Shown in pieces: positions 29,501 through 64,000 of a DNA stretch of 64,000 nucleotides. The position numbers were made by a program, and so were the translations under genes. Source of the stretch: an uncultured Gammaproteobacteria bacterium (GTDB taxonomy: Bacteria > Patescibacteriota > Microgenomatia > UBA8517); assembly GCA_964583685.1 (NCBI GenBank), contig CAZOVJ010000002.1:111333-175332 (forward strand), read 5' to 3'. A model generated the notes under the pieces. The model made no database searches and was not told the DNA's origin. It saw only the letters and a list, made by a program, of their open reading frames with translations. Positions within the stretch are counted from its first letter, which is position 1; every line of letters starts with the position of its first letter.

Positions 29501-30508
29501 GGCATGGGTTGCAACCAATTCTCCGACCCGTCTAAGACGGCGGTTAGCCAGGTGATCTATGTCATCGACTTTCCCTTGACCATTTTGCAGAGAAATCAAG
29601 TAGGATAAGGTGGCGACAATATCTTGTTTTGTTAAAACTCCACTTGACTCATCATTAAGAAGACCCATCTTCAATCTTTTATTTATCTTGTATCGTCCCA
29701 CTCTTCCCAAGTCGTATCTTCTTGGATCAAAAAAAAGAGTATTAACTAGATTTTCTGCATTTTCTAAAACAGCCGGCTCTCCTGGTCTCATCTTTCTATA
29801 AAATTCAAGAAACGCCTCCTCGCGCGTCTTGGTTAAATCCTTTTCTATTGTGCTGGCTATATATCGGTGGCTATTATCTATATCAGCATCGGAGAAAAGT
29901 CTCAAAATCTGGATATCTGAGGCAACCCCCATTATCCTCAAAAATGTCACCGCATTCATTTTTCTTCTTTTGTCTATCCGAACAGCAATAATGTCCTTTC
30001 TATTCACCTCAAACTCAATCCAAGAACCATGTAGGGGTCTTATCTCCGCCTTATAAAGCATTCTGCCGGAAGAAGGATCTAAATCACCTGAAAAATAAAC
30101 TCCAGGGGACCTTACCAGCTGATTGATAACGGCTCTTTCAACTCCCTTGACAACAAATGTTCCTGAAGAGGTCATCTGGGGAATGTTCCCCAGAAAAACT
30201 TCCTGGCTAACCTTCTTGCCCGTCTTTTTATTGATTAAGGTTGCTTTTATCTTGAAGGAAGAAGAAAAGGTCAAACCTTTTTCTCTAGCTGTATCCGGAG
30301 TAATCTGGGGAGGCTCCAGCTTAGGCTCAATCAATTCCAGCTGCCAATTCTTCCCTGTAAAATCCTCAATTGGTAAAATCTTGACCAGCTCTTGCTTGAT
30401 TCCCTTTTCTAAAAACCACTGCCAAGACTCTCTTTGAACTAGAATAAGGTCTAATGGGGGCAGTTTTTTCTCTGTTTTTCCGAAATTGCGTCTTTTAGGT
30501 TGGGCCAT
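23576..30508 (-). CDS. rpoBC: DNA-directed RNA polymerase beta-beta' fusion (RpoB-RpoC in one 2310-aa ORF)
   Basis: The N-terminus is beta-like. The beta C-terminus [27 protein letters not shown]...LAVELGKEG runs in frame through a linker [20 protein letters not shown] into the beta' N-terminus [11 protein letters not shown]...[26 protein letters not shown]...[12 protein letters not shown], and ends with the beta' C-terminus. The junction is at about 27210..27275, with no stop codon. Confidence 0.9.
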
Positions 30509-31918: not shown

Positions 31919-32314
31919 TCAAAAGTGAGAGGTGGTTCTGTCTAGATATTTTTGGAGAATGAGGCTGGCGGAGAAGGCATGTTCAAGTTTCTTTCTCTTC
32001 TTTCTAGAAATACCGGCTTTAATAGCCAAGGCCTGAGCATCTTGAGAACTAAGAGTTTCATCTTCCAAATCAACTTTGAGACCAGTAATCTTGACCAGCT
32101 CTTTGGCAAAAATTTTTGTTTTCTCAGCCATTACTCCTTCCGATATGCCGACAACAATCCTTTCAACTCCCTCTTCAACAACAATCTTCTTTAATTTTGG
32201 AAAAACTTCCTCAACCTTCCTCAGCCTAATAACCCGGAAGGGCTCGGCAATGGCTGAAACTGCCAGAGCCAAACCAATCTTCTTTTCACCATAATCAATG
32301 CCGAGTATGGACAT
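31919..32314 (-). CDS. ruvX: Putative pre-16S rRNA nuclease / Holliday junction resolvase-like YqgF
   Basis: The MSILGIDYGEKKIGLALA N-terminal RNase H-like motif typical of YqgF/RuvX. Confidence 0.75.
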   Translation of the reverse strand: MSILGIDYGEKKIGLALAVSAIAEPFRVIRLRKVEEVFPKLKKIVVEEGVERIVVGISEGVMAEKTKIFAKELVKITGLKVDLEDETLSSQDAQALAIKAGISRKKRKKLEHAFSASLILQKYLDRTTSHF

Positions 32315-32948
32315 GGGCTTCTTCTAAGGGCACTATTCTTGCCCTAATAACCAGCCTTTTGGGCTTCAGGGGATGGCCGGGCGGGACACAAGTTATTAAG
32401 GTTAAAAAAGAATCACTCTGATTCTGCTCTAAAACCTGAATGTTTGTGGTTAGGGCCTCAAAAATGTCCTCAACCCGATATTGATAAGAAATGCCGTCAT
32501 ATTCTACCTCAATCTCATCACCCCTTTTCAGACTGGGCAGAGTAGAAAAAATGGCCAAATAATCCTTGGGGTTGTAAAACTGAGGCAAGATTGAATGGCC
32601 GAAAATAACGGCATTCCCCCGCTTGCCGGGCAGGGCCGTACCCGGGTATTGAATCAGGCTCTGAGACAAATCCTCTCCACCGATGGCCACAGTTGCATTT
32701 TCTATTTTTAGCTTGGGAATGGAAAGAGTATAAAAAGAAATCTTCAGAGAAACAAAATCATTGCTTTCCTTTCCACCAACAAACCAATTGCTGGCCTTTG
32801 TATAGTCTGGCTGGGAGACAGAAGAACTGGCTGTCTTTGTTTCATAGGATAAAATTGGGTAAAGAACGGAAAAGAGAATAACAACACCTGAAACTGCACA
32901 AACGGCAGCTATTATGGTAATGAAAGTTTTGTTTTGCCAGAGATTCAT
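32295..32948 (-). CDS. Sortase family transpeptidase
   Basis: N-terminal membrane anchor; conserved His (AVIFGHS), catalytic TLITC motif and downstream Arg (RLVIRARI). Confidence 0.7.
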   Translation of the reverse strand: MNLWQNKTFITIIAAVCAVSGVVILFSVLYPILSYETKTASSSVSQPDYTKASNWFVGGKESNDFVSLKISFYTLSIPKLKIENATVAIGGEDLSQSLIQYPGTALPGKRGNAVIFGHSILPQFYNPKDYLAIFSTLPSLKRGDEIEVEYDGISYQYRVEDIFEALTTNIQVLEQNQSDSFLTLITCVPPGHPLKPKRLVIRARIVPLEEAHVHTRH

Positions 32949-35107
32949 TCTTCTGCCACTACTTCAATAGATATATTCCTGTTGATTCGGGGTAGAGTTC
33001 TCAGTTTTCCAGGAAGAGATGGCTTCAAACGGATCTCCACCCGAGTGAATCCAGAAATTGTTGAAAGATGATCTTCAGCCAGGGGCAGGTATTTTCCCTT
33101 AATTGCCCTAGTAATCTCCTCCGGCCTTATCTCAGGAAGCAAATTGGCTTTAAAAACTACATCAAGCTGCCAAATTCCGTTCTCACTCTTTTCATTCAGA
33201 TAAAATTCTGCTTCAATCTGCTCTTCCTTTAAAACAAAACCCTCGGCAACCTGGTCCTCCAAAATCCCTTTTGCCAATTTCTGTAAATCTGACCTTAAAA
33301 CAATTAGACCGGCCATGTCTAAAGACATACTCAGCTTAAGGGTGGGTGCCTCATCGCCAAGCTTGTGATTGAAATCCCTGGCTGAGACTGTTTTTTCTAT
33401 TGCCTCTTCGATAAAAATCTTCTCTTCACTTACCTGCTCTCGAATTTGCTTCTTGCCAAGATCAAGTAATTCTTCGCTTAAATCTCTTTCCAAAATATCT
33501 TTATCCTCAGAGGAGACAACGCTAATTTCCCGACTCGACCCACCCAAAAAATCCTCCTCTGCTATCCCGTCGACTTCGCTCTTGGGATAATTAGCCACCT
33601 GAAAGGTTTGTTCTTTCGCCAAGTTGTACTCAGCCCCAATTTCCTCCGCAGTGACGCTGACGCTGGCTGTACCCGGAGAAGAAGGAGAAACTGCGGCCGA
33701 CACTGAAGCTGAACTGTCAAGTGTGAAACTTAGATTGTTTGGTCCTAAAATTTTTGTCTCTGCCGCCAGCCTGATGTTCGAAGATGTTCCATTCTGAATC
33801 AAAACCTTACCCTTGGCCTTTTCCCCCACTCTTTTACTTCCTGTGGTCGAGCGTGTTTTATCGGCTGAAACTGATGTTTCCAAAACATTACCAGGCAAAA
33901 GCCTCTCTTCAAAATTGGCACCATTTACTCTCGGATCAACAAATAAAATTTCTTTTTGCTCAATATTCTTGGGGGCAACATAAATTGTCACCTCTGCTTT
34001 AGGTAAAAACCACCAAGCAGAAAGAGCAAGAATGATAATAGCGACAAAACCTATTCCTCCAAAAACGAAAAATCTTTTACCCGTCATCCCTCTCTGAATA
34101 GAAAAGGGAAAACTCTTCAGCTTTTTTAAAACAACAGAAGACAATGCTTTCTTAAAAAAAGAAGGTTTCTTGACAACAGGGGGAGTAGCCATTGTTTGAT
34201 CCACCTCCCTCCTTTGCTGTTCTTGAGTTATATCCTTACCAACGGTAAATCCCATATCTTCTGGCCCAAGGGCCTGGCTCTCAATCTTTTCCTTCTCTTG
34301 TTCTTTTTTTTCTCCTTCTTCTTCCGGCTCTTGCCTCTTTTCAACCTCAAGAGAGACAACTCCTTCTATCTCTGATGCCCCGGCCAAACAAACACTAAAA
34401 AGCTTACTGTCTGAGTCAATAATTTCCACCTTTGGGGTGTGAAGAAATTGTACCTTTTCTTGCAAATTTCCTGTCCAGTCTGCCGCTATAAGAATCTGCT
34501 TCTCTTCTTCCAGGTCGCCTTCTCTACCATTGTATATCAAAAATCGTGAGGGAAATGGCTCACCGGTTTTAAGCCTAACCAACCCCTCAATAAGATCGTC
34601 TACCACTGAAACGCTTCTTGTCACAGAGGTTGTGCCCACTAAATTTCCCAGTCTATAAACAGCTATATCCAAGAGTTCTTGGCCTAGACCAATAACCACC
34701 GCACTTAAAGGAGAACCTTCTTCTGATTTAATAAAATGAGCAATTGCTTCTGGAAGAACAACAAATCCCACTGGTTCAAGAGAAAGTTTAGAACAAATCC
34801 CTCTTATCTTGTCCAAATATTCTTTTTTTATCTGGCCTTTCAAGACCCATGATGATGAAACTCCAAAAACTGTTTTTGAGGGTTCGGGTGCATCTTCGGG
34901 TAAATCCTGTATTGCTAGCGATAAAGAAGTATCAGCCACATTTGGCAAATCCTCATCTTTCTCCCAACGAGAGGGGGGGCTGGTTGAGTAAACTTTTGCC
35001 TTCTTTGTTTCCTGGTCTATTACCCAAACAGCCGCCTGAATCCAATTAGGCTCGATTAGTAGAGACCAATAATACTCTTGCATAGATTCTCCGAATACCC
35101 GAGGCAA
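32945..35107 (-). CDS. Hypothetical bitopic membrane protein (about 330-aa cytoplasmic N-domain, one TM, about 350-aa extracytoplasmic domain)
   Basis: 720-aa ORF. The N-terminal region (YYWSLLIEPNWIQAAVWVID...) is weakly reminiscent of actin-like FtsA/PilM N-termini. An acidic linker is followed by a TM helix (FFVFGGIGFVAIIILALSAWWFL) and a Ser/Thr-rich C-terminal domain. Confidence 0.5.
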   Translation of the reverse strand: MPRVFGESMQEYYWSLLIEPNWIQAAVWVIDQETKKAKVYSTSPPSRWEKDEDLPNVADTSLSLAIQDLPEDAPEPSKTVFGVSSSWVLKGQIKKEYLDKIRGICSKLSLEPVGFVVLPEAIAHFIKSEEGSPLSAVVIGLGQELLDIAVYRLGNLVGTTSVTRSVSVVDDLIEGLVRLKTGEPFPSRFLIYNGREGDLEEEKQILIAADWTGNLQEKVQFLHTPKVEIIDSDSKLFSVCLAGASEIEGVVSLEVEKRQEPEEEGEKKEQEKEKIESQALGPEDMGFTVGKDITQEQQRREVDQTMATPPVVKKPSFFKKALSSVVLKKLKSFPFSIQRGMTGKRFFVFGGIGFVAIIILALSAWWFLPKAEVTIYVAPKNIEQKEILFVDPRVNGANFEERLLPGNVLETSVSADKTRSTTGSKRVGEKAKGKVLIQNGTSSNIRLAAETKILGPNNLSFTLDSSASVSAAVSPSSPGTASVSVTAEEIGAEYNLAKEQTFQVANYPKSEVDGIAEEDFLGGSSREISVVSSEDKDILERDLSEELLDLGKKQIREQVSEEKIFIEEAIEKTVSARDFNHKLGDEAPTLKLSMSLDMAGLIVLRSDLQKLAKGILEDQVAEGFVLKEEQIEAEFYLNEKSENGIWQLDVVFKANLLPEIRPEEITRAIKGKYLPLAEDHLSTISGFTRVEIRLKPSLPGKLRTLPRINRNISIEVVAEE

Positions 35108-54016: not shown

Positions 54017-54043
54017 CTAGCACTCACCCATGTCAAGTGCTAA
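54017..54043. promoter_or_regulatory. CIRCE operator (HrcA binding site) for the hrcA-grpE-dnaK-dnaJ operon
   Basis: cTAGCACTC-acccatgtc-aAGTGCTAA matches the CIRCE consensus TTAGCACTC-N9-GAGTGCTAA as a 9-bp inverted repeat with a 9-nt spacer. It lies immediately upstream of hrcA. Confidence 0.75.
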
Positions 54044-55749
54044 TTTTGGATTTCGTGGGCAGGCGGGGTAAGAGGCTCTGGCTCTTTGGGCGGGGGTGAT
54101 ATTTTGAACTTCTTGATGCTATCAAATAAAGCAAAAAACTCTTTTGACTTTAAAACAAAAGAAATACCAAGATAGATGCCAAGGCCAACTGCAGCAACCA
54201 CTCCTGTTAGAATCAGCAAATTAAAGGTATAGCGCGTGTCTAAGACAAAACGCTCAAAGGGGAGAGCGGTGGCGTCAATTTTACTTAAAAAAGAAAGTCT
54301 TTTTACCCAGACAGACCTGTCGAAGAACTTTAAAAGAAAAAACATAACAGCTCCCGACATAAGAGATGCGATAACACTTTTGCAAACAGGCAATAAAGCG
54401 CTAAAAAGCGGAATCCCACCCACTTTTTTGCCCAAAAGATAAAAAAGGACCATTGCTTGAACCCCTACCCCAAAAGAGAAAGAGACGGCCAAAGAATAAA
54501 GTGGTAAAGAAAATCCCTTGACAAGAACAATATCAACCAAAATTATTAAAATAACGCTTGATAAAGAGACGATTACCGGAGTCCTCGTGTCATGAAGGGC
54601 ATAAAAAGCCCTGGCTAAAAGAGCAACTACTGCCTGGAAAACGATACCAACAGCAAAAGCAGATACTACCATGCCTGTTTGGACCGTGGCTTCCCAAGTG
54701 AAGTTTCTGGCACCAAAAACAAGTCTTACTAAGGGGATTCTTAAAACCATAAGAATCGTTGCCGTTGGTAGGACCAAAAAGACAATTTCATAAAAAGTTG
54801 TTAGAAAAGTTCTTCTGAATTTATTTAAATTGTCCCCTTGACGAGCCAGGGTTGGTAGAGCTGCCTTAGCCAAAGATGAACCAAAAAGGCTAACAGGTAA
54901 AAGCTGTAGGCTATTGGCAAAAGTAAAATATGTATAGGAAGCAGTTGATATCAGGGAAGCCAGAAAAAGCTCTACAGTTTTTTCTACCTGTAGGAAAGAA
55001 AGGTCGAGCACGCGGGGCAAGGCAAGCTTGCCAATCTTCTTGACAGTCTGATTTGGCCTAAGTTTAGCTGTAAATCTGAAGCCAAGCTTCCGGGCCAGAG
55101 GGAGCTGAACCAGCAAATGGGCCAAGGCTCCAACCACAACCCCGATAACTGGGGCAAAGAGGCCAAGACGTGAATTTAAGATTACTATTCCAAAAATTAT
55201 TCCCAAGTTATACAAAATCGGTGCAAAGGCAGGAACCAGAAATCTTCTCGAAGACTCAAGGACACCAGTTAAAACATAACTTATGACAAACAAACCCTGG
55301 GCAAGAAAAAGTATACGGGCTAAATTAACAATCCTCTCTATTTGGAAAACAGTGAAGCCCGGTGCAACCAAACTATAAATCTGTCTTGCCCAAATACCAA
55401 AGATAAAAGCCAGGGGAATAAAAATTAGCAGACCGATATTGACAACTCTAGCGGCAGTATCCCAGGCTTCTTTTTCCTTTAGTTTCAAGGTCTTCGTAAA
55501 TACTGGTATGAAGGCGGAGGAAAACATGCCGAAAACTAAAATTTCGAAAACTGTGTCCGGCAAGCGAAAGGCAGCAAAAAACAGAGAAAGCTCCTCTCCT
55601 GTAAAAAAGTGGACAAGAACCCTTTGGCGAACAAGGCCAAGAACACGAGAAGTAATAATCATAACCATAATTACGGTGGCAGCAGAAAGAATGGATTCCT
55701 GCGGAGAAGTTAAAATCCTTTTACCTTGAGAAAAGATTCTTCTAAACAT
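54040..55749 (-). CDS. murJ: Lipid II flippase MurJ (MviN family)
   Basis: 569-aa polytopic membrane protein with a MurJ-like N-terminus (…ILSAATVIMVMIITSRVLGLVRQRVLVHFFTGEELSLFFAAFRLP…). Confidence 0.7.
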   Translation of the reverse strand: MFRRIFSQGKRILTSPQESILSAATVIMVMIITSRVLGLVRQRVLVHFFTGEELSLFFAAFRLPDTVFEILVFGMFSSAFIPVFTKTLKLKEKEAWDTAARVVNIGLLIFIPLAFIFGIWARQIYSLVAPGFTVFQIERIVNLARILFLAQGLFVISYVLTGVLESSRRFLVPAFAPILYNLGIIFGIVILNSRLGLFAPVIGVVVGALAHLLVQLPLARKLGFRFTAKLRPNQTVKKIGKLALPRVLDLSFLQVEKTVELFLASLISTASYTYFTFANSLQLLPVSLFGSSLAKAALPTLARQGDNLNKFRRTFLTTFYEIVFLVLPTATILMVLRIPLVRLVFGARNFTWEATVQTGMVVSAFAVGIVFQAVVALLARAFYALHDTRTPVIVSLSSVILIILVDIVLVKGFSLPLYSLAVSFSFGVGVQAMVLFYLLGKKVGGIPLFSALLPVCKSVIASLMSGAVMFFLLKFFDRSVWVKRLSFLSKIDATALPFERFVLDTRYTFNLLILTGVVAAVGLGIYLGISFVLKSKEFFALFDSIKKFKISPPPKEPEPLTPPAHEIQN

Positions 55750-55750
55750 A

Positions 55751-55779
55751 TTGATATTCTTGTGTTTTTAAATTATACT
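55751..55779 (+). promoter_or_regulatory. Putative promoter for rpsT (TTGATA-17-TATACT)
   Basis: -35 TTGATA at 55751..55756, a 17-nt spacer, and -10 TATACT at 55774..55779. The predicted transcription start site lies at the first unit of a 14-nt tandem repeat. Confidence 0.45.
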
Positions 55780-55826: not shown

Positions 55827-56087
55827 ATGCCAGTAAGCAAAACAGCCAAAAGAGCCCTAAGGGCATCAAAAAAAAAGACCATTGTCAATAAGATTATCTT
55901 CAGCAATCTTGAAAAGGTTATGAGGCAGGCCAAAAAAGACAAGGTCCCTCAGACAATTAGGAAAGCCATTTCTTTGGCTGACCGGGCCGCAAAAAAGAAA
56001 ATAATTCACAAAAATAAAGCAGCCAGAATCAAAAGCTCTCTTTCAAAACTTCTGGCTAAGAGCAAAAAAAAGGCAGTCAAAAAGTAA
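55827..56087 (+). CDS. rpsT: 30S ribosomal protein S20
   Basis: 86 aa, basic and all-helical; the ...KKKIIHKNKAARIKSSLSKLL motif matches S20 (LIHKNKAARHKANL). Confidence 0.75.
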   Translation: MPVSKTAKRALRASKKKTIVNKIIFSNLEKVMRQAKKDKVPQTIRKAISLADRAAKKKIIHKNKAARIKSSLSKLLAKSKKKAVKK

Positions 56088-56133: not shown

Positions 56134-56673
56134 ATGACTGCTCTACAGATTAATCTTTTACCTCAGGAAGAATTTGCCGCCTCCACTTTGGGGAGGATAT
56201 TAACTTGGTTACTTTCAACTTTCCGAATAATAGTAATTGTCACTGAAATGATTGTTATGTCTTCTTTTTTTCTCCGATTTTGGTTCGACGCCAAATTGAC
56301 TGACCTCTCTGAAGAGATTCAACAAAAACAAGCGATAATCAGTTCCTATTCTTCTTTTGAAAAGGATTTCAGGCTTGCCCAAAAAAAACTTAGGATATTC
56401 TCATCATCGACTTCTGACCAGAAAAGCCTAGAACTCTTCCAAGGTCTCATCTCTTGCTTACCGGAAAACATCCAGCTAAATTCCTATTCTGCCAGCCTCA
56501 ACGATTTGCAAATAAAAGCAATGAGTACCAACGAACAATCAATTGCTCAATTTATAGCCAACCTGGAAAACAAAGAACAATTTAAAAATGTTTCTTTGAG
56601 AAACCTTGAAACAAATAAGGACGACCTGTTCATTGGTTTCCTGATCAAAGTTAATCTGAAAGGAGATATATAA
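56134..56673 (+). CDS. pilN: PilN-like type IV pilus assembly protein
   Basis: N-terminal INLLPQEE signature (PilN INLLPWREE), a single TM, and a coiled-coil periplasmic domain. Confidence 0.55.
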   Translation: MTALQINLLPQEEFAASTLGRILTWLLSTFRIIVIVTEMIVMSSFFLRFWFDAKLTDLSEEIQQKQAIISSYSSFEKDFRLAQKKLRIFSSSTSDQKSLELFQGLISCLPENIQLNSYSASLNDLQIKAMSTNEQSIAQFIANLENKEQFKNVSLRNLETNKDDLFIGFLIKVNLKGDI

Positions 56674-57329
56674 TGGCTCTTGGTTGGAAACGAAGATATC
56701 TTCGTTATCAAAAATATTATTTAAATATCCTTGCCCTTTACAAAAAACGCCAGGATTTAAAAATGTTCTTAGAAATTCTTCTTTCTCTGGCCACAATTGC
56801 CTTTTTCGCTGTTTTTGCCTTGAAACCAACCCTCCTGACTATCGCCCAGCTAAAGAGGGAGGTAGATACTAAAAAAGAAACAGTCGTCAAAATGGAACAA
56901 AAAATTCAGAATTTGTCTCGTGCTTCAGCCCTTTTTAATCGAGAAATATCCAGGCTTTCACTGCTCGATACGGCTGTTCCGAGCAATCCTTCTCCCGGCT
57001 TAGAAGTAAGACAAATTGAAGGAATAGCGAAAAAAAATAAAGTAAGCATTTTGGGAATATCTCTAGGAGAAATTACCCTTGTCGGCCAAGAAAAGGAAAA
57101 GTTCAAAGAGAAAAAAGAGTTAAAAGAATTTCCTGAAGGAGCGAAAGCAATAAGTCTCTCGATTAATGTTTCGGGCACATATCCTGATTTGGTTGCCTTT
57201 CTTTCTGATTTAGAAAGCCTGAGAAGGCCATTGCGGATAGATGCAATCTCTTTTAATCTAATTTCCACAGAAGAAAAACAAACAATTGTCTTGACGCTAG
57301 CTGGCCGGGCACCTTATCTTAAGGACTAA
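56673..57329 (+). CDS. PilO-like membrane protein
   Basis: 218 aa; cytoplasmic basic N-terminus, one TM, and a coiled-coil plus alpha/beta C-terminal domain. The start overlaps the pilN stop (ATAATGG coupling). Confidence 0.4.
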   Translation: MALGWKRRYLRYQKYYLNILALYKKRQDLKMFLEILLSLATIAFFAVFALKPTLLTIAQLKREVDTKKETVVKMEQKIQNLSRASALFNREISRLSLLDTAVPSNPSPGLEVRQIEGIAKKNKVSILGISLGEITLVGQEKEKFKEKKELKEFPEGAKAISLSINVSGTYPDLVAFLSDLESLRRPLRIDAISFNLISTEEKQTIVLTLAGRAPYLKD

Positions 57330-57337
57330 ATAGCTTA

Positions 57338-57619
57338 ATGAAAAAACAAAGAGTCAAAACACCAAGTCTAGTTATCATCGCCATCCTGACGGTAATCACC
57401 ATCGCTTTTTGGATAGCATTCAATGTTTTTAGAACCCTGACTATAAAAACACCGTCGTCTGTTCCCCTGGAAATTCTCTCCCCTCTTAATCCCAATCTTG
57501 ACTCACCGGCCCTTAAAGGGCTACAAGAAAGGATACAATTAACAAACACAGAGATCGACAGCATGGAAGCACCGGAAATAAGTTCCTTGGCCAGTCCAGA
57601 AGGAGAAATTAATGAATAA
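57338..57619 (+). CDS. Small membrane-anchored protein (hypothetical, possibly PilP-like accessory)
   Basis: 93 aa, with a basic N-terminus, one TM, and an acidic Ser/Pro-containing tail. Confidence 0.35.
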   Translation: MKKQRVKTPSLVIIAILTVITIAFWIAFNVFRTLTIKTPSSVPLEILSPLNPNLDSPALKGLQERIQLTNTEIDSMEAPEISSLASPEGEINE

Positions 57620-58961
57620 ACTCAAAATGAATAAGCTAAAATTACCAACATTGATTGCTGTTATAGTTCTCACCATGGGGCTGGCAGCCGGCGTTCTTTT
57701 GTTACAAAGTAAACAAATCTTTAAACTCGGGGCCTCTCCTGACATTGCCCCAAAAGATGTCAGGATAACAAATATTACGGACACTTCCTTTACTGTCTCC
57801 TGGACAACAGATAAAAAAACCAGTGGTTTTATTATTTGGGGAAAAACTGAACAATTGGGACAGACAACAATTCCGGAAAACCAAGGATTAAAAAACGTTC
57901 ATTCAATAACCACTAGACAGCTTTCTCTTGAAACAGCTTACTTTTTAAAAATCAATTCCAATGCCAACGAATTTGATAATAGTGGAATTCCCTGGCGGAT
58001 GAAAACCGGTCCCTCTCTTAAAATCCTCTCTGTTCCGGGAATCATTTCCGGCTCTATTTTGACCGCCACTGGACAACCAGCAGCAGAAGTTACTGTTTTT
58101 GTCAGTGCCGGAGGAATCAGCCCTCTGTCGGCAACAACTTCTCAGGATGGCAGTTGGGTAATTCCCTTGTCTAACATCCGCAGTGCGGACCTTTCTTCAT
58201 TTGGGCAGTTAAAACAGGCAAATGTTCTTTTAGAAATCTTTGTTCAAGGAGGCCCGCTGGGAGTTGCTACTGCCAAAATCTTTACCAATTCGGCTAATCC
58301 CACCCCCCATATCATTCTCGGTAAAACACATGATTTTAGAAATGAGCCGGCAAATGAAGCTTCCGAACTGCCCGAGGCCTCAATCAATTTACCAGAAGAA
58401 TCCACGCCCTCTTCTGGCTTTGAAATCCCTGAGGAAATAGCCACACCTTCGGGGGAAACAATCAGTATAGAAAGTATAAGTGAAGGAGAAACTATAAGTT
58501 CCACCGAGCCAGAATTCTTCGGGAAAGGGCCTTCGGGAACCATTATTACTATTACCATCGAATCAGACCCGATCTCCGCTCAAACAACTGTTAATTCTTC
58601 GGGAAATTGGAATTGGAACCCACCAGAAGAACTAGAAGAAGGAACACATCAAATTACTCTTTCTTGGAAAGACAGCAATGATATCTTAAGGACCTTAACC
58701 CGAAACTTCATTGTTCAAGCAGCAGAAGGGCCTGCTTTTGAATCAACACCCTCGGCTGAGCCGACTGCTTCTCCATCTCCTTCTCCAACTCCCTCTGCCA
58801 GCCCTTCAGCCTCTCCCCGTGTAAGCCTACCCTCTACTGAATCAGGAACCCCAATTCCCGGAACCTTGACACCCACTCTAGTCTTGTTTACGATAGGAAC
58901 AGGGCTACTTACTTTGAGTGGAGCACTTGTTTATTTATTGTTGTTTCATAAACAAAATTAA
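57612..58961 (+). CDS. Cell-surface protein with an N-terminal anchor, an FN3-like domain, Ig-like domains, a Ser/Pro-rich linker and a C-terminal hydrophobic anchor
   Basis: The FN3-like signature is DVRITNITDTSFTVSWTTDKKTSGFIIWGKT. The linker is AEPTASPSPSPTPSASPSASP. The C-terminus ...LPSTESGTPIPGTLTPTLVLFTIGTGLLTLSGALVYLLLFHKQN has a sorting-signal-like architecture. Confidence 0.5.
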   Translation: MNKLKMNKLKLPTLIAVIVLTMGLAAGVLLLQSKQIFKLGASPDIAPKDVRITNITDTSFTVSWTTDKKTSGFIIWGKTEQLGQTTIPENQGLKNVHSITTRQLSLETAYFLKINSNANEFDNSGIPWRMKTGPSLKILSVPGIISGSILTATGQPAAEVTVFVSAGGISPLSATTSQDGSWVIPLSNIRSADLSSFGQLKQANVLLEIFVQGGPLGVATAKIFTNSANPTPHIILGKTHDFRNEPANEASELPEASINLPEESTPSSGFEIPEEIATPSGETISIESISEGETISSTEPEFFGKGPSGTIITITIESDPISAQTTVNSSGNWNWNPPEELEEGTHQITLSWKDSNDILRTLTRNFIVQAAEGPAFESTPSAEPTASPSPSPTPSASPSASPRVSLPSTESGTPIPGTLTPTLVLFTIGTGLLTLSGALVYLLLFHKQN

Positions 58962-58986
58962 AAGTCAGGGCCCAAAATTTTAAACA

Positions 58987-60195
58987 ATGCCAGATCAACC
59001 TGCCCCAAACAAACCAGATAAACCTGTTTCTCAACCTTCTCAGCCCGTTAGTGGCAAGCCGCCAGCTCCAACCCTTCCTCCCCAACCATCAACTCCTGGA
59101 GCTCCCCCTGCACCAATTCCTCCTGGGCCTCCTCCTCCATCTCCTCCTATATCTCCTCTGCCTTCAAAATCAGAGAGTGAAGAACTTCCTCCAATCATTA
59201 GCACTCCAGCCAAAAAGAAATTGGGCAAAGGCAAAATAGTTGCCGCAATTTTGGGAGTTTTGCTTTTGGTTGGCGGCGTTACGGCCGGAGTAATCCTGGT
59301 CCAACAGCGCCAGGAATTAAGAGAAAAGGCAGCATGTACCCCATGCCTAGGAGGGACATGTCCTGATGGATGGTCGTACGGGCCTGATGAATGTTCCTGG
59401 CAACCATGCGACGCTAGGGCGATAGAAGCGTGTAAGGACCATCAAATTACTTCGGACGGTGGCGGTGAAGAACCCAGTGAAGGAGAAGGTCCTTATTGCG
59501 CCATCTGTAGTCCTGCGGACGCATGCGAGTGCGATAAGGGTACTACAACAGGTTATAAATGCAAATTTGCTCCCTCAGAGTGTGCTCATTTAGGCTACAC
59601 CTGGCAACCAGATTCCAGCTGCCCGACTGGTCAATCATGTGGTGACGAGGGAGAGGAAGCTGGTTTTGAATACATTACATTCGAGTGCGATCGGTGCGAA
59701 GGACTAAAATGCCAAACCGAACCGGTAATAGGAGTTAATCCTCGATTCATGCTTGGTAACCATCCCGGACCCTGTAGTCAGGTAGATAGAAGACCGATAG
59801 GCTCCACTGATGGCTGGACCGCTCACGATCTCTGCGATAACGACGATTGGTGTATATCACCAACCGCTACCCCAACCTTACCTCCGGGTATAACCTGTCA
59901 GTGTCGGGAAATCAAGGCCTTTGATACCGGCTGGAATCAGTTAACCTCAGAACAGCTAGGGCAGCTCCAGGCTGGAGATACCGTCTATTTCACTGTTAGC
60001 GGTACTAAAACCTCAGGAATTTTTGACAAGGCGAGGTTTACCATTAATGCCATTCTCAGACCAGAGGTTACCAACAAAAGACCGGGAACTGACGAATTCT
60101 ATGACCAGTATCAAATTACCTCAACCGATATTAGCCGGGGTAGTATCAGTCTGGGAGCCATCATTCATCATCAAGAATTAGATGAATGGTTCTAA
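58987..60195 (+). CDS. Membrane-anchored Cys-rich extracytoplasmic protein with a Pro-rich cytoplasmic N-terminus
   Basis: An approximately 80-aa Pro-rich N-terminus (PAPNKPDKPVSQPSQPVSGKPPAPTLPPQPSTPGAPPAPIPPGPPPPSPP) is followed by a TM and about 27 Cys in CxxC / C-x-C patterns (CTPCLGGTCPDG...CAICSPADACECDKG...CDRCEGLKCQ), with a beta-rich C-terminal domain. Confidence 0.5.
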   Translation: MPDQPAPNKPDKPVSQPSQPVSGKPPAPTLPPQPSTPGAPPAPIPPGPPPPSPPISPLPSKSESEELPPIISTPAKKKLGKGKIVAAILGVLLLVGGVTAGVILVQQRQELREKAACTPCLGGTCPDGWSYGPDECSWQPCDARAIEACKDHQITSDGGGEEPSEGEGPYCAICSPADACECDKGTTTGYKCKFAPSECAHLGYTWQPDSSCPTGQSCGDEGEEAGFEYITFECDRCEGLKCQTEPVIGVNPRFMLGNHPGPCSQVDRRPIGSTDGWTAHDLCDNDDWCISPTATPTLPPGITCQCREIKAFDTGWNQLTSEQLGQLQAGDTVYFTVSGTKTSGIFDKARFTINAILRPEVTNKRPGTDEFYDQYQITSTDISRGSISLGAIIHHQELDEWF

Positions 60196-60673
60196 AAAAA
60201 TGAAAGAATTTTTAAAGAAAAATACAATTACGGTCTTAATTATCATTGCCACCATCGTCTTAGCTGGCATCGCTATGTTTACCGCCTTCAGGCTCTATCA
60301 GCTAAGACAAAAGGCGGTCGCCCCCACTGTACCCGAAAGCAGGCCGGCTGCCGAAGAACTTCCCGCGCCTGTTCCTGATTGCACCCTGACCTTTGCTTTT
60401 GCTGCCACGCCAACTCCCACAGCAACACCGACTGGAAGCCCCAGCCCTACACCGACAGCCACGCCGGCAGAAAGTCCAACACCCACACCAACAGCCACTC
60501 CCACATCCACTCCCTCTCCCAGCCCGACTGTTACACCCAGTCCAGGTGTCATTCCAACCCCCTCACCCACCCCGGCCCCTGAGCTGCCAGAAGCAGGCAT
60601 CAACTTACCAACAATCTGCGGGCTTGGCATTGGCGCCCTTCTCCTCATTATCAGCCTCATCCTAGCCCTCTAG
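60182..60673 (+). CDS. Small surface protein with an N-terminal anchor, a Thr/Pro-rich mucin-like repeat region, and a C-terminal LPEAG + hydrophobic tail
   Basis: TPTPTATPTGSPSPTPTATPAESPTPTPTATPTSTPSPSPTVTPSPGVIPTPSPTPAPELPEAGINLPTICGLGIGALLLIISLILAL. The repeat DNA yields spurious overlapping ORFs in other frames. Confidence 0.5.
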   Translation: MNGSKKMKEFLKKNTITVLIIIATIVLAGIAMFTAFRLYQLRQKAVAPTVPESRPAAEELPAPVPDCTLTFAFAATPTPTATPTGSPSPTPTATPAESPTPTPTATPTSTPSPSPTVTPSPGVIPTPSPTPAPELPEAGINLPTICGLGIGALLLIISLILAL

Positions 60674-60686
60674 GTTCTTTTGTTCC

Positions 60687-63095
60687 TTATCTCCATGAAG
60701 AAAACCAGTAATAAGAATTGTCCAGACTAAGTGGTATTTTCAAGCCTATCCAATGAGGATAAAAATAAAGGAAAATTATTCCTGCAAGGACAAAGAAGGG
60801 AATGGCCAGTCTAGAAAACCTTCTCAGAACATAAGCTGTTACCATTGCCAAAAAGGGCATTGAAGGCAGATAATGATAAAGAAACATTATTCTCGGTGAA
60901 ATTGCCCAGGGAACAAAAAAGGCAAAACAGGAAAAAACAATCAAAGCCAGTTTTTTATTTTTTTCAAAATAGGCATAAATTAGGCAAATGACAATTGCCA
61001 ACACTCCAAACCAAAAAACCAGGGGATTACCCATGGCATAGATATTGGCAACTGCATGCCTGATTGCTCCGCTGGTATAAAGCCAAACCGGCCGAAGCAA
61101 AAAGGGCCAACTCCACCAGGGAGATGTATAAGGATGAGTGGCTTCCAGTTGGGAATGATACCACCACATTTGTTTTTGGAGACCAACGAAAATATCCCAA
61201 CCATGGCCAGTTAAAAAGAGCGGCAGATAACTTGCCAGGTAGACGGCTGCCGGAACAAGCAAAAACCAAAGGTAACCCTTGGTAAATTTTCGTTTAAGAG
61301 AGAAGTGGGAAATTAGCAAAACCGGAATCATCCAGATGACAGTCCATTTGGAAGCAGCAGCCAGACCCAAGGCCATGGCCGAGAAAAGGTTTTCCTTTTT
61401 AAGGAAGAGATAAAGAGAAAGCAGGCTAAAAAACAAAAAATAAATATCGTTCATGGCGATTCTGGACATGCTTAAGACCAGGCCGTCCAAGGCAAAAGCT
61501 CCTGAGGCCAAGAGAGCTAGTAGCCGGTCTTTAAATAGCTCTTTTGTCAGTAAATAAACAAGATAAACCGTGACCACGCCCAGTAAGGCCGCCGGAATCC
61601 TCCAGCCAAAGGCATTTTCGCCAAAAACAAGCATCCCCAAAACCATTGCTTCTTTAGCCAACGGCGGGTGGGTCCATTCATAGGCAAAACCTTTAGGCGG
61701 CGTATTCCACCATTCCCAGACCTTTGGGTCCCCATGAAGCATGCGCCGGGCCGTAAAGGCATGATAAACCTCATCAAAATATTCTTTTTTGGGCTGACCC
61801 AACCAGGCAACTCGGGTTAAAAAGGAGAAAATGAGCAGGCCAATTAGTAAGTTTCGACCCACAACTTGGCTTATGTCTTTCCTCTTCTTTTCCTTCTTAA
61901 ATTTAATTAACTGATTGAATAAAGGTAAAGCAAACCTTTTACTTTTCTTCACCAATATTTCACGGAAGAGAAAAAAGAGAAACCCAAGGTTGAAAAGGAT
62001 AAAAATTTTTAGAACCAAGGGAGAAAAAACGCTCAAAAAATCTTTTGTTATCCAGTTAAAGGAATAATATAAATTAGCAAGATAAATGGCGGAAAAGCCA
62101 AGATAAGGAATCCAAAGACGAGAATTTAAAACTGAAGCAATTGCCAGAAAGGCAAAAGCCGGTAAAAGATGTCTTTCGTGCATCCGGGTAAAAAAGAAAA
62201 AGCTTGAAATAAAAATCATGCTAGCCAGAAAATAGCGACCCCCCTTAACTTTTCTTGAGCACCATAAGACTAATAAAGATAGAGTAAAAGTGATAATCAG
62301 TCCGGCTATCTGTAAACCTAGGTTATCCTTTTGCCAAAAACCAAAAAGCCCCAAAAAATTAAAAGCATTAATAGTCGTATAGGGATATTGATTAAGACCT
62401 GTCTGGATTCTTGACAAGATAAAAACAACTAAATTCTGTTCTCCAGAAAAAGGGACAAATCCCAGGATAAAAATCAAGAAAGCAAAAACTATATAAATAA
62501 AAATCTTTTTTGTTTTCCATTTCTCTTTTAACATAATGAAAAGAACAACTGCTGCCGCCAGTCCTGCCTGGGGTTTAACCAATGTGCCAAAGCTCAAGAA
62601 AAACGCTGAAAGAAAAGGATTGATATCAACTAAGTAAATCGCCAAAAGAGAGAATAGGGCGGTTAAGGAATCTACCTGCCCCCAAAGACTAGAGTTTGCC
62701 AAAATAGCAGGATTAAAAACATAGAAACTGGCCGCAATCAAACCCCACTTTTTGTTTTTAATCTTCCTAACAATCAAGTAGATTAACCAGCCACTGAGAA
62801 TATCAGAAATAATCGCCGGGAATTTATAAAGAATAACGCTAGGTATTGACAGCCAATTACTTAATTTTGCCAAAAAACCAAGTATGTAAAGATAGCCGGG
62901 AAGATAATCGCACCAGCTCTGATAAAACCTGGCAAACCCTACATTGACCAATCTGTTGCTCCAAGCAATAAAAGTGTTTTGGTCAAGCTCCAGTGTTCCA
63001 TGGGGAGAAAGAAAAAATCTGACTATCAAAGCTGTTAAAAGTAGCAGTAAAATAGGGAAGAGTGAAAAAAGCTTTTCCCTTTTTTCAGATTCCAT
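60687..63095 (-). CDS. Large polytopic membrane glycosyltransferase, GT-C fold (PMT/ArnT-like), apparently two GT-C-like modules fused
   Basis: 802 aa with more than 20 TM segments. The C-terminal half carries a PMT/ArnT-type first-loop motif YFDEVYHAFTARRML followed by multi-TM helices. The N-terminal half is a second polytopic module (…FARFYQSWCDYLPGYLYILGF…). Confidence 0.5.
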   Translation of the reverse strand: MESEKREKLFSLFPILLLLLTALIVRFFLSPHGTLELDQNTFIAWSNRLVNVGFARFYQSWCDYLPGYLYILGFLAKLSNWLSIPSVILYKFPAIISDILSGWLIYLIVRKIKNKKWGLIAASFYVFNPAILANSSLWGQVDSLTALFSLLAIYLVDINPFLSAFFLSFGTLVKPQAGLAAAVVLFIMLKEKWKTKKIFIYIVFAFLIFILGFVPFSGEQNLVVFILSRIQTGLNQYPYTTINAFNFLGLFGFWQKDNLGLQIAGLIITFTLSLLVLWCSRKVKGGRYFLASMIFISSFFFFTRMHERHLLPAFAFLAIASVLNSRLWIPYLGFSAIYLANLYYSFNWITKDFLSVFSPLVLKIFILFNLGFLFFLFREILVKKSKRFALPLFNQLIKFKKEKKRKDISQVVGRNLLIGLLIFSFLTRVAWLGQPKKEYFDEVYHAFTARRMLHGDPKVWEWWNTPPKGFAYEWTHPPLAKEAMVLGMLVFGENAFGWRIPAALLGVVTVYLVYLLTKELFKDRLLALLASGAFALDGLVLSMSRIAMNDIYFLFFSLLSLYLFLKKENLFSAMALGLAAASKWTVIWMIPVLLISHFSLKRKFTKGYLWFLLVPAAVYLASYLPLFLTGHGWDIFVGLQKQMWWYHSQLEATHPYTSPWWSWPFLLRPVWLYTSGAIRHAVANIYAMGNPLVFWFGVLAIVICLIYAYFEKNKKLALIVFSCFAFFVPWAISPRIMFLYHYLPSMPFLAMVTAYVLRRFSRLAIPFFVLAGIIFLYFYPHWIGLKIPLSLDNSYYWFSSWR

Positions 63096-63113
63096 TAAAA
63101 GTATTTTACCTTA

Positions 63114-64000
63114 ATGTTAAATCGCAAAGAAAAAAAACTGGCATTTTTTGTCCTCTTTTCGCGCATTTTTCTCTTGCTGGGAATATATCTTTTGAGCATC
63201 TCCATTGTAAATCAGCCACCATCCTTTTCGAAGTTCTTGGAAACTTACGCCAGCCGCTGGGATGGAGACCATTACATTTTTATCTCCCAAAATGGTTATG
63301 TGACAGAATGGCCTGAGGCAAGTTTCATTGTCTTTCTTCCTTTTTACCCACTTACAATTAAAGCTGTAAACTACCTAATTAAAAATCCCCTGATAACCGG
63401 CGTTTTGCTCTCCAATTCATTCTTTATGTTGGCCGCCTTGGCTTTTTACAAACTTCTCAGACTTGACTATTCTCAAAAAATAGCCAGCTTGGCAATTGTC
63501 CTTCTCGCCATCTTTCCCACTTCCTATTTCTTCTCAGCCGCATATCCAGAATCGCTTTTTCTCCTCCTTTTTGCCTTGACATTTTATTTAACAAGAAAGC
63601 ATCTCTTTTTTGTTTCTTCTCTCACGGCCGGCCTTCTCACCCTAACCAAGCCCTTTGGTATACTCATCTGGTTTCCTCTTGTTGTCGAATTTTATCAATC
63701 GAAAAGAAAAAAACTAAAACAGCTTTTCCCATTGCTTCTAGTTCTCGTTTTTTCTAGTTCTCTTTATCTTTTTATAAATTTTTATACCTACAAAGACCCC
63801 TTGGCATTCCAAAAATTTTTAAACAAAAATTGGTACAAATCCTTTGCCTTCCCCTGGCAGGGAATTCTTGAGAGCTGGAAAAGGGGATTCTCAACTCCGG
63901 AATGGGGTAGTTATAAAATTCTCATTGGATTCGCTGAAGCAGTTGCTTCAATAGTCGCTTGGCTCTGTATCCCTTTGGCCTTTCTCAGGAAAACAAAAAT
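63114..64000 (+). CDS. GT-C family membrane mannosyltransferase-like protein (PIG-V/DUF2029-like), partial; continues past the window end
   Basis: ATG at 63114, an open frame to the window end with no stop (checked by hand), and missing from the ORF track. The motif YASRWDGDHYIFISQNGYVTEWPEASFIVFLPFYPL resembles the W-D-x-x-H/Y-Y...GY...AFFPLYP signature of PIG-V-type GT-C mannosyltransferases; multiple TM helices. Confidence 0.5.
   Translation, partial: MLNRKEKKLAFFVLFSRIFLLLGIYLLSISIVNQPPSFSKFLETYASRWDGDHYIFISQNGYVTEWPEASFIVFLPFYPLTIKAVNYLIKNPLITGVLLSNSFFMLAALAFYKLLRLDYSQKIASLAIVLLAIFPTSYFFSAAYPESLFLLLFALTFYLTRKHLFFVSSLTAGLLTLTKPFGILIWFPLVVEFYQSKRKKLKQLFPLLLVLVFSSSLYLFINFYTYKDPLAFQKFLNKNWYKSFAFPWQGILESWKRGFSTPEWGSYKILIGFAEAVASIVAWLCIPLAFLRKTK

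Follow-up and report, generated by a model that had tools for sequence, protein, structure and literature searches.

A conserved cell-envelope locus of Microgenomates-type bacteria encodes PilN and PilO homologues beside LPXTG-like surface proteins and GT-C glycosyltransferases

The 64,000-nucleotide stretch of contig CAZOVJ010000002.1 analysed here (assembly GCA_964583685.1, positions 111,333 to 175,332; hereafter the window) ends in a string of genes for PilN and PilO homologues, putative surface proteins and GT-C glycosyltransferases. This string is a conserved cell-envelope locus of Microgenomates-type bacteria of the candidate phyla radiation (CPR; Woesebacteria, Amesbacteria and relatives), and it consists of a fixed core and a swappable surface cassette. 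rpsT, encoding ribosomal protein S20, is the first co-directional gene (55827..56087, + strand; Pfam Ribosomal_S20p, 39.5 bits) and lies 5' of pilN in most loci. pilN (56134..56673, +) encodes a protein of 179 amino acids (aa) with one transmembrane (TM) helix, a PilN domain and an N-terminal INLLP motif, and the start of pilO (56673..57329, +; 218 aa) overlaps the pilN stop by 1 nt. The next genes encode the 93-aa bitopic protein TM93 (57338..57619, +) and the 449-aa protein FN3_449 (57612..58961, +). They are followed by Cys402, a 402-aa protein with 22 Cys and a Pro-rich N-terminus (58987..60195, +), and TP163, a 163-aa TP-repeat protein whose gene overlaps the end of Cys402 by 14 nt (60182..60673, +). 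Convergent to TP163 lies the gene of an 802-aa two-module GT-C enzyme that contains the motif YFDEVYHAF (60687..63095, - strand). The 5' part of a divergent gene for a PIG-V-like GT-C mannosyltransferase (63114..64000, +) then runs off the window. All eight open reading frames (ORFs) of this string, which had been described in an earlier annotation made from the DNA letters (the original prediction), were confirmed at their positions in the ORF list of the 64-kb window.

The calls of PilN-like and PilO-like proteins in the original prediction hold. On sequence evidence, the pair is well supported as true homologues of the type IV pilus (T4P) alignment proteins PilN and PilO, because the family profiles match PDB entry 3jc8, public sources use the name PilO and the [IL]NLLP motif is retained. 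The window PilN begins with MTALQINLLPQEEF, and its PilN domain PF05137 scores 44.4 bits against a Pfam cut-off of 22.8. The best PDB match of the PilN-family profile is Myxococcus xanthus PilN (3jc8; E=3.4e-7). The PilO domain PF04350 of the window protein is borderline, with 21.9 bits against a cut-off of 22. The PilO-family profile has M. xanthus PilO as its best PDB match (3jc8; E=7.1e-7), and Pseudomonas aeruginosa PilO is matched more weakly. Close homologues of the window PilO are named PilO in public sources, and some orthologues have a precomputed PF04350 match. The N-terminal motif [IL]NLLP is found in 37 of 38 PilN orthologues, and the remaining one has INLIP. In characterised systems, the INLLP motif is the PilM-binding peptide of PilN.

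To collect related loci, species-representative genomes were scanned with an alignment of PilO (35 loci) and metagenomes with a divergent PilN alignment (80 further loci), and all were annotated with hidden Markov models made from the window and its relatives. One of them, L026, comes from the complete Microgenomates chromosome CP066686.1. The predicted gene order was kept in 112 non-identical loci from Woesebacteria/Amesbacteria-type genomes. Co-occurrence in related genomes, which had been proposed as a check of the module, is therefore observed, and at least one GT-C is also present in all 43 loci that have 9 kb or more of sequence 3' of pilO. Among the 62 loci with at least 2.5 kb downstream, TM93 follows pilO in 60 and the FN3_449 family is present in 55. 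The gaps between PilN and PilO, PilO and TM93, and TM93 and FN3 are at most 15 nt in 98-99% of loci, as are those between the Cys and TP genes in 85%, with overlaps perhaps slightly overstated by an ORF caller that uses the most upstream start. The core rpsT-pilN-pilO-TM93-FN3_449 is thus tightly packed and invariably linked. In three contigs with homologues, dnaJ-dnaK-grpE-hrcA-murJ lie on one strand and are followed by rpsT-pilN-pilO, the small TM protein gene, further genes, one or more GT-C genes, LCP (LytR-CpsA-Psr) and uvrD. The core string stays intact in two loci (L045 and L053) despite broken upstream synteny.

TM93 is a lineage-specific protein in which the TM helix and a juxtamembrane segment are conserved, and it has no match in Pfam or NCBIfam. 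It contains a conserved PxE[IV]LxPLxPxLD segment. In FN3_449, a signal/anchor is followed by fn3, CarboxypepD_reg-like and Big_13 domains, an S/P-rich stalk and a degenerate LPXTG-like end. The Pfam scores of Big_13 (42.1 bits) and fn3 (27.3 bits) are above the cut-off, and that of CarboxypepD_reg is below it (25.0 against 32.3 bits). Across the family, the signal/anchor is followed by three beta-sandwich domains, the S/T/P stalk and a C-terminal TM helix. Orthologues end in [LIV]Px[TS]G.LTPT, a TM helix and a WK/WR-type tail, so the positively charged tail of a sorting signal is present in this family.

The Cys402 family has about 60 homologues, and all source names given are Woesebacteria, Microgenomates or Patescibacteria. 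Its members share, in this order, a conserved Pro-rich tail starting with 'MPD', a conserved TM helix, a hypervariable Cys-rich region and a conserved C-terminal domain of about 100 aa ending in HHxxLGWF. The Pro-rich tail is probably cytoplasmic, because it precedes the TM helix, behind a Lys cluster, and therefore it is probably not a glycosylation target. The AlphaFold2 (AF2) model of Cys402 is confident only at residues ~300-402, which form an Ig-like sandwich with a predicted local distance difference test (pLDDT) score above 93. A fold search with this domain gave no lead to its function, since Foldseek returned only generic Ig/FN3/CARDB-like beta-sandwich matches with E >0.03. The TP163 family has a conserved leader (LAGxAxFTAxRLYQLRQxxVAPxxPxSxP...C[TS]xL[TS]F) and a middle region that is either T/P-rich or Cys-rich/CARDB. 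Its C-terminus is LP[EDQ][AS]G..xPT with a TM helix ending in LAL, and the window copy has LPEAG. In TP163, 87% of the richest 30-aa stretch is S/T/P. The TP/SP-rich linkers of the original prediction are borne out: both the FN3_449 and the TP family have conserved stalks rich in S/T/P, which are absent from the control families PilN, PilO, MurJ, DnaK and LCP. The Cys and TP genes are adjacent, overlap in the window and have been duplicated together in L008 and L030. The leader of the TP family (window 60182-60340; L004-L037) looks uncleaved, with RLYQLRQxxVAP placing a Pro directly after the Ala, and it contains the conserved Cys of C[TS]xL[TS]F. In the partner Cys-rich family, an invariant Cys (C306) lies where the C-terminal Ig-like domain starts. 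Judging from these residues, the two proteins may be joined by an intermolecular disulfide or by the pairing of strands.

Sorting signals were searched for with the pattern [LIVP]P.[TSA]G followed by a hydrophobic C-terminus in all ORFs of at least 90 aa from all loci. In the TP family 33 of 45 ORFs fit this pattern, as did 42 of 73 in the FN3_449 family; no unlabelled ORF did. With TIGR01167 (cut-off 15.9 bits), two orthologues of FN3_449 reach 14.9 and 14.3 bits. Sequence comparison therefore points to both families as LPXTG-like proteins, with the caveats of a degenerate window motif, an uncharged TP tail and sub-threshold models. The original prediction of membrane-anchored surface proteins overlooked the LPXTG-like signals in the orthologues of the 449-aa and 163-aa families. 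A sortase gene lies elsewhere in the window (32295-32948, -; Pfam Sortase, 84.4 bits), and its product scores 52 bits with TIGR01076 (cut-off 39.35). These signals, the sortase gene and the Ig-like and CarboxypepD_reg-like (CnaB-like) domains of FN3_449 could be explained by a sortase-assembled pilus of the Gram-positive type with FN3_449 and TP163 as pilin subunits. This reading is very improbable. The window sortase is 21 kb away and matches the generic family only (class C sortase score 48 bits, cut-off 160), no sortase was found in or beside the block at any locus, TP163 is a low-complexity stalk without a pilin fold, and no pilin-motif or E-box analysis supports it. With no sortase next to the block and none of class C character, a sortase-dependent pilus is rejected.

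The 802-aa enzyme consists of two GT-C modules in its AF2 model (pLDDT 83.8), at residues 1 to ~385 and ~403 to 802, with a disordered linker at 384-402. On profile and model evidence, its C-terminal half is a GT39 protein O-mannosyltransferase (PMT) module. Residues 420-801 match PF02366 (PMT; 58.7 bits) and PF16192 (PMT_4TMC; 70.7 bits) in Pfam, PMT_2 is also matched, and among the relatives PF02366 is found in 42 of 43 and PF16192 in all 43. The acidic pair D441-E442 in YFDEVYHAF, the motif of the first extracytoplasmic loop, is invariant in 43 sequences, and this motif lines up with VFDEVHFG of yeast Pmt1, though in a segment of the alignment that is below threshold. A structural search had been suggested as a way to recognise the GT-C proteins as unrelated transporters. 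Foldseek of the 802-aa model placed Pmt4 (9i5k; E=9.8e-11, TMt 0.65), yeast Pmt4 and Pmt1/Pmt2 at the top. The score with the NCBIfam Pmt equivalog model is 57 bits, against a cut-off of 800. The original description of a PMT/ArnT-like GT-C therefore stands as to the PMT type, and the single GT-C is replaced by two modules.

The N-terminal half of the window copy has only a weak PMT_2 match (23.3 bits). Across the 43 relatives, this half matches Mannosyl_trans4 in 20 (best E=2e-9), GT87 in 4 and PIG-U in 2, and an invariant D38 follows its first predicted helix. Foldseek also lists PimE (9dm5), ALG3, ALG12 and PIG-M with TMt 0.55-0.67 over ~400 aligned columns. We infer that these matches belong to the N-terminal half, because the fold tool gives no aligned half, and this half is accordingly described as a putative module of the dolichyl-phosphate-mannose (DolP-Man) type with a PimE/ALG3-like fold. 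The two-module fusion is common, with more than 1162 homologues, of which the best 120 are mostly ~770-830 aa long and annotated as GT39. The PIG-V-like call for the neighbouring ORF is upheld by a Pfam Mannosyl_trans2 match of 28.2 bits (cut-off 22.4). Beyond the window, the source contig (L124) holds the full 369-aa PIG-V-like gene, followed by a 363-aa LCP protein (LytR_cpsA_psr), UvrD and FemAB. An LCP gene adjoins the GT-C genes in 32 of the 43 loci that extend 9 kb or more beyond pilO.

The same 43 loci were used for the comparison of the cassettes. In the first type, Cys and TP genes occur with the GT39-type enzyme, with or without PIG-V-like and 547-aa GT-Cs. The second type has no Cys/TP genes and contains HAD, GT4, PMT_2-type GT-Cs and DUF2298. 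In a third group (L004-like), Cys and CARDB-type TP genes occur with PMT_2-type GT-Cs and DUF2298. The variable block of some loci also encodes a Wzy_C (O-antigen-ligase/PglL-type) protein with TPR repeats and, just 5' of the GT-Cs, amine-oxidase/UDP-galactopyranose-mutase-like flavoenzymes (these genes lie at L123 2863-4893, L102 10200-11414 and L123 7067-8371). The TP family and the GT39-type enzyme occur together in 27 loci, TP alone in 5, GT39 alone in 0 and neither in 11 (Fisher p=7.6e-7 over loci; 7e-5 over clades collapsed at 65% identity). The GT39-type enzyme was thus found only in loci that also hold a TP-repeat gene. Several cassette swaps are suggested, because loci of the different cassette types are mixed on a dendrogram of PilN+PilO+MurJ similarity, built by the unweighted pair group method with arithmetic mean (UPGMA). 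The co-variation of TP and GT39 is the best evidence for a functional link between enzyme and substrate.

Taken together, the locus may encode wall-anchored, probably O-mannosylated surface proteins beside a PilN/PilO platform, a combined picture that we put forward tentatively and consider slightly less than evenly probable. We infer the glycosylation, the wall anchoring and any link to a pilus from the protein families and the arrangement of their genes. PilM and the pilus motor would be encoded elsewhere, and PilN and PilO would bind that PilM. TM93 and FN3_449 would be lineage-specific accessory partners of PilN/PilO. The wall-anchored FN3_449 would probably tether the membrane platform to the wall and replace the PilP/PilQ-type connectors of diderms. 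In Actinobacteria, the mannose donor of Pmt is polyprenol-phosphate-mannose (PMC5882110). The PMT module of the 802-aa enzyme may likewise transfer mannose from polyprenyl-phosphate-mannose to Ser/Thr residues of T/P-rich stalks that are emerging from the Sec channel, and the glycan may be extended by the N-terminal DolP-Man-type module, the PIG-V-like enzyme or both. A sortase, for example the one at 32295-32948, would anchor the surface proteins to the wall. LCP would join a glycopolymer to peptidoglycan, or to a surface protein as in Actinomyces oris, where LcpA glycosylates the LPXTG protein GspA (PMC6381275).

Several findings weigh against this picture. No polyprenol-phosphate-mannose synthase (Ppm1-like GT2) was found among the window ORFs scanned. 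The sorting motif of FN3_449 is degenerate in the window copy (PIPGTLTPT, a TM helix and HKQN), the C-termini of the TP163 family (...LAL) end without the positive charges that a classical sorting signal has in its tail, the scores with sorting-signal models all stay below the cut-off and NCBIfam gives no match for the window proteins. The UPGMA tree is a rough phylogeny, and the co-variation is no proper phylogenetic test. Loci without Cys/TP genes keep GT-Cs together with GT4, HAD, DUF2298 and LCP, a pattern that resembles glycopolymer synthesis. The entire dnaK-to-uvrD region is syntenic, and therefore the conservation of the neighbourhood is in part inherited gene order. Homology and the INLLP motif are all that ties the pair to a pilus, and none of the related loci has a pilM, pilB, pilC, pilT or pilin gene within 10 kb.

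The T4P-like scaffold of the original prediction was followed up further by searches for pilus genes. A Pfam scan of the larger unassigned ORFs of the 64-kb window found none of pilM, pilB, pilC and pilT; these ORFs are housekeeping genes only. In ~115 loci with flanks of up to 10 kb, a motif scan found no ATPase of the GPTGSGKT type (the Walker A motif of PilB/T), and a regular-expression scan of all ORFs found no prepilin of the G|FTLIE type with a class III signal peptide, for which G at -1, F/M at +1 and E at +5 were taken as the criterion. Neither the N-terminus of FN3_449 (KLPTLIA in the window copy, KIPTxxG in its orthologues) nor that of the Cys family (consensus ATILG) has the G-1 or the E5 of pilins. 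Uncharacterised upstream ORFs in distant loci were resolved as GH39, LepA, RNase J, UDG and AAA proteins. The link to a T4P-like scaffold, as originally proposed, thus finds no counterpart in these flanks, from which pilM, the ATPase and the prepilin are all absent.

These absences raise the question of whether PilN and PilO have been co-opted away from pili and form, with TM93 and FN3_449, a distinct envelope-spanning scaffold for the export, glycosylation and anchoring of surface proteins. The pair is never beside pilM, pilB, pilC or pilins, unlike in Saccharibacteria, where pilM-N-O are located inside pilB/pilC loci (PMC12206443), and it is invariably coupled to two lineage-specific envelope proteins. 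As a precedent, flagella are reported to have recruited PilMNO homologues in some bacteria (PMC10823254). Co-option is nevertheless unlikely. The PilM-binding motif is retained in all but one of the orthologues, and therefore a PilM-like partner is expected; pilB, pilT, pilM and pilC are also reported to be widely conserved across Patescibacteria (PMC12206443). The one candidate partner in the window, a 720-aa protein beside the sortase, has no PilM/FtsA similarity by profile search. A stronger form of this idea holds that PilN/PilO, TM93 and wall-anchored FN3_449 are an undescribed pilus-independent envelope-spanning machine of Microgenomates. In it, a co-opted alignment complex would organise the export, the O-mannosylation by a bifunctional initiating-and-elongating GT-C fusion, and the sortase anchoring of hypervariable host-contact glycoproteins. 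We regard this form as distinctly unlikely.

The genes may also be functionally separate neighbours. PilN and PilO would then serve an ordinary T4P encoded elsewhere, the wall proteins would be unrelated to them, and the GT-Cs and LCP would build a mannan- or teichoic-acid-like wall glycopolymer that LCP ligates to peptidoglycan, with the gene order kept only because these reduced genomes rearrange little. The synteny that runs from dnaJ-dnaK-grpE-hrcA-murJ through LCP-uvrD-FemAB agrees with this explanation, and MurJ, LCP and FemAB are wall-synthesis genes that fit wall-glycopolymer synthesis equally well. The 11 of 43 loci without TP genes, nearly all of which also lack Cys, retain PMT_2-type GT-Cs with the enzymes and LCP named above, and the UDP-galactopyranose-mutase-like flavoenzymes and the Wzy_C protein of some blocks point the same way. 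However, the core genes have tiny gaps or overlaps, and they hold together where the upstream synteny breaks. GT39 with PMT_4TMC is moreover a protein-O-mannosyltransferase family, and here it occurs only with a TP-repeat gene despite repeated cassette swaps. We consider separate neighbours somewhat unlikely. If the neighbours are unrelated, the result is an ordinary annotation of a syntenic envelope region.

The picture of O-mannosylated, wall-anchored proteins beside a PilN/PilO platform shares features with several known systems. In the PilM-PilN-PilO(-PilP) alignment subcomplex of type IVa pili (Myxococcus, Pseudomonas, Thermus; Saccharibacteria T4P loci), PilN and PilO are homologous, bitopic and adjacent as they are here, and INLLP is kept. 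In contrast, the loci studied here (~115) have no pilM, pilP, pilQ, motor ATPase, platform protein or pilin gene nearby. The pair is instead followed at gaps of at most 15 nt by the gene of the small TM protein and then by that of the FN3/Big_13 protein, whose end is LPXTG-like. The pair lies between rpsT/murJ and a glycosylation/LCP block. Actinobacterial O-mannosylation by Ppm1 and the GT39 enzyme Pmt (Mycobacterium tuberculosis, Streptomyces coelicolor, Corynebacterium glutamicum) resembles the present case in the PMT and PMT_4TMC domains, the DE loop motif, the lack of a MIR domain and the candidate substrates, which are secreted proteins with S/T/P-rich unfolded stretches. It differs in that the enzyme here is fused to an N-terminal DolP-Man-type GT-C module (Mannosyl_trans4/GT87/PimE-like). 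The gene also lies beside its putative substrates and a PIG-V-like GT-C in a CPR bacterium, whose window ORFs, as far as scanned, include no Ppm1.

The GspA-LcpA-SrtA system of A. oris, in which an LPXTG protein is glycosylated in an LCP-dependent manner before sortase anchoring (PMC6381275), likewise combines surface proteins that have sortase-type C-terminal signals with nearby genes for LCP and glycan assembly, and a housekeeping-type sortase is encoded at another place in the genome. The present locus differs in its GT-C/PMT-based glycan machinery and in its motif variants (LPxAG/LPxSG and [IV]Px[TS]G), its TP family is without a charged tail, and the block is coupled to pilN and pilO. A further likeness concerns FN3_449. 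Archaeal and Gram-positive surface glycoproteins, such as the haloarchaeal S-layer glycoprotein, have beta-sandwich domains, an O-glycosylated T/S/P-rich stalk and a C-terminal sorting motif with a TM helix, and the architecture of FN3_449 is alike. FN3_449 has no known sequence relationship with these glycoproteins, and a different class of sorting enzyme would be expected.

All components belong to known families (PilN, PilO, GT39, PIG-V-like GT-C, LCP and LPXTG-like proteins), and their combination is unusual. The unusual parts are the orphan pilNO with two lineage-specific envelope proteins, the sortase-type T/P-repeat cassette that co-varies with GT39, and the fusion of a DolP-Man-type GT-C to PMT. 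The literature searches turned up no account of these parts, including the GT-C fusion, or of the operon. The locus offers a conserved and testable operon that links pilus-platform proteins to wall-anchored proteins. The co-variation of GT39 with T/P repeats nominates enzyme-substrate pairs for bacterial protein O-mannosylation outside Actinobacteria. The enzymes that elongate actinobacterial O-mannosyl glycans were stated to be unknown in a 2024 paper (PMC11727336), and the DolP-Man-type GT-C/PMT fusion is a natural candidate for an enzyme that extends bacterial O-mannosyl glycans. The swappable cassette between conserved genes looks like a hotspot of surface diversity, which is relevant to host range and phage evasion. 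CPR bacteria rely on surface contact with their hosts, and to our knowledge almost nothing is known of the CPR envelope machinery outside Saccharibacteria.

The divergent upstream neighbour of the string is murJ (54040..55749, -), which encodes the lipid II flippase (Pfam MurJ, 227.7 bits) and is found upstream in nearly all related loci. Between murJ and rpsT, a sigma-70-like promoter match (55751..55779, +) agrees with the consensus at 10 of 12 positions and is a possible operon promoter. A terminator-like hairpin (60661..60674, +) is situated between the convergent TP163 and GT-C genes. Both elements are consensus matches only and are weak evidence. The 802-aa GT-C gene and the PIG-V-like gene diverge from start codons 18 nt apart (63096-63113), and because of this spacing their promoters must sit inside the neighbouring coding sequences.

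The gene of the 720-aa membrane protein (32945-35107, -) overlaps the sortase gene (32295-32948, -), and both are inserted between alaS and ruvX/mltG. The protein has a conserved N-terminal domain of ~250 aa, a TM helix and a weak Baseplate_J-like outer domain, and its family comprises 5011 representative clusters. It was considered as the missing PilM/GspL-like partner, and by eye it looked FtsA/PilM-like. The only match of a single-sequence PDB search was FtsA with E=0.77. A 17-member profile of the N-terminal domain found no PilM/FtsA in the PDB, where only spurious gp41 constructs were returned, and no Pfam family. This candidate was rejected for want of profile support.

In Amesbacteria-like relatives (L062 4405-5769; L119 1617-4208), GH39-like genes either separate hrcA from murJ or precede the locus. 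Many metagenome-assembled genome (MAG) records that hold the locus (L012, L020-L023, L025, L029, L031, L033, L036-L040 and L042) are titled 'uncultured Gammaproteobacteria' or 'Pseudomonadales'. These labels are suspect because of the gene content and the similarity to Woesebacteria/Amesbacteria loci, which suggest that they are wrong. Elsewhere in the window, a single 2310-aa ORF (23576-30508, -) combines the RpoB motif RHGNKG, at residue ~858, with the catalytic motif of RpoC, NADFDGD, at residue ~1628, and it appears to be a fused rpoB-rpoC gene.

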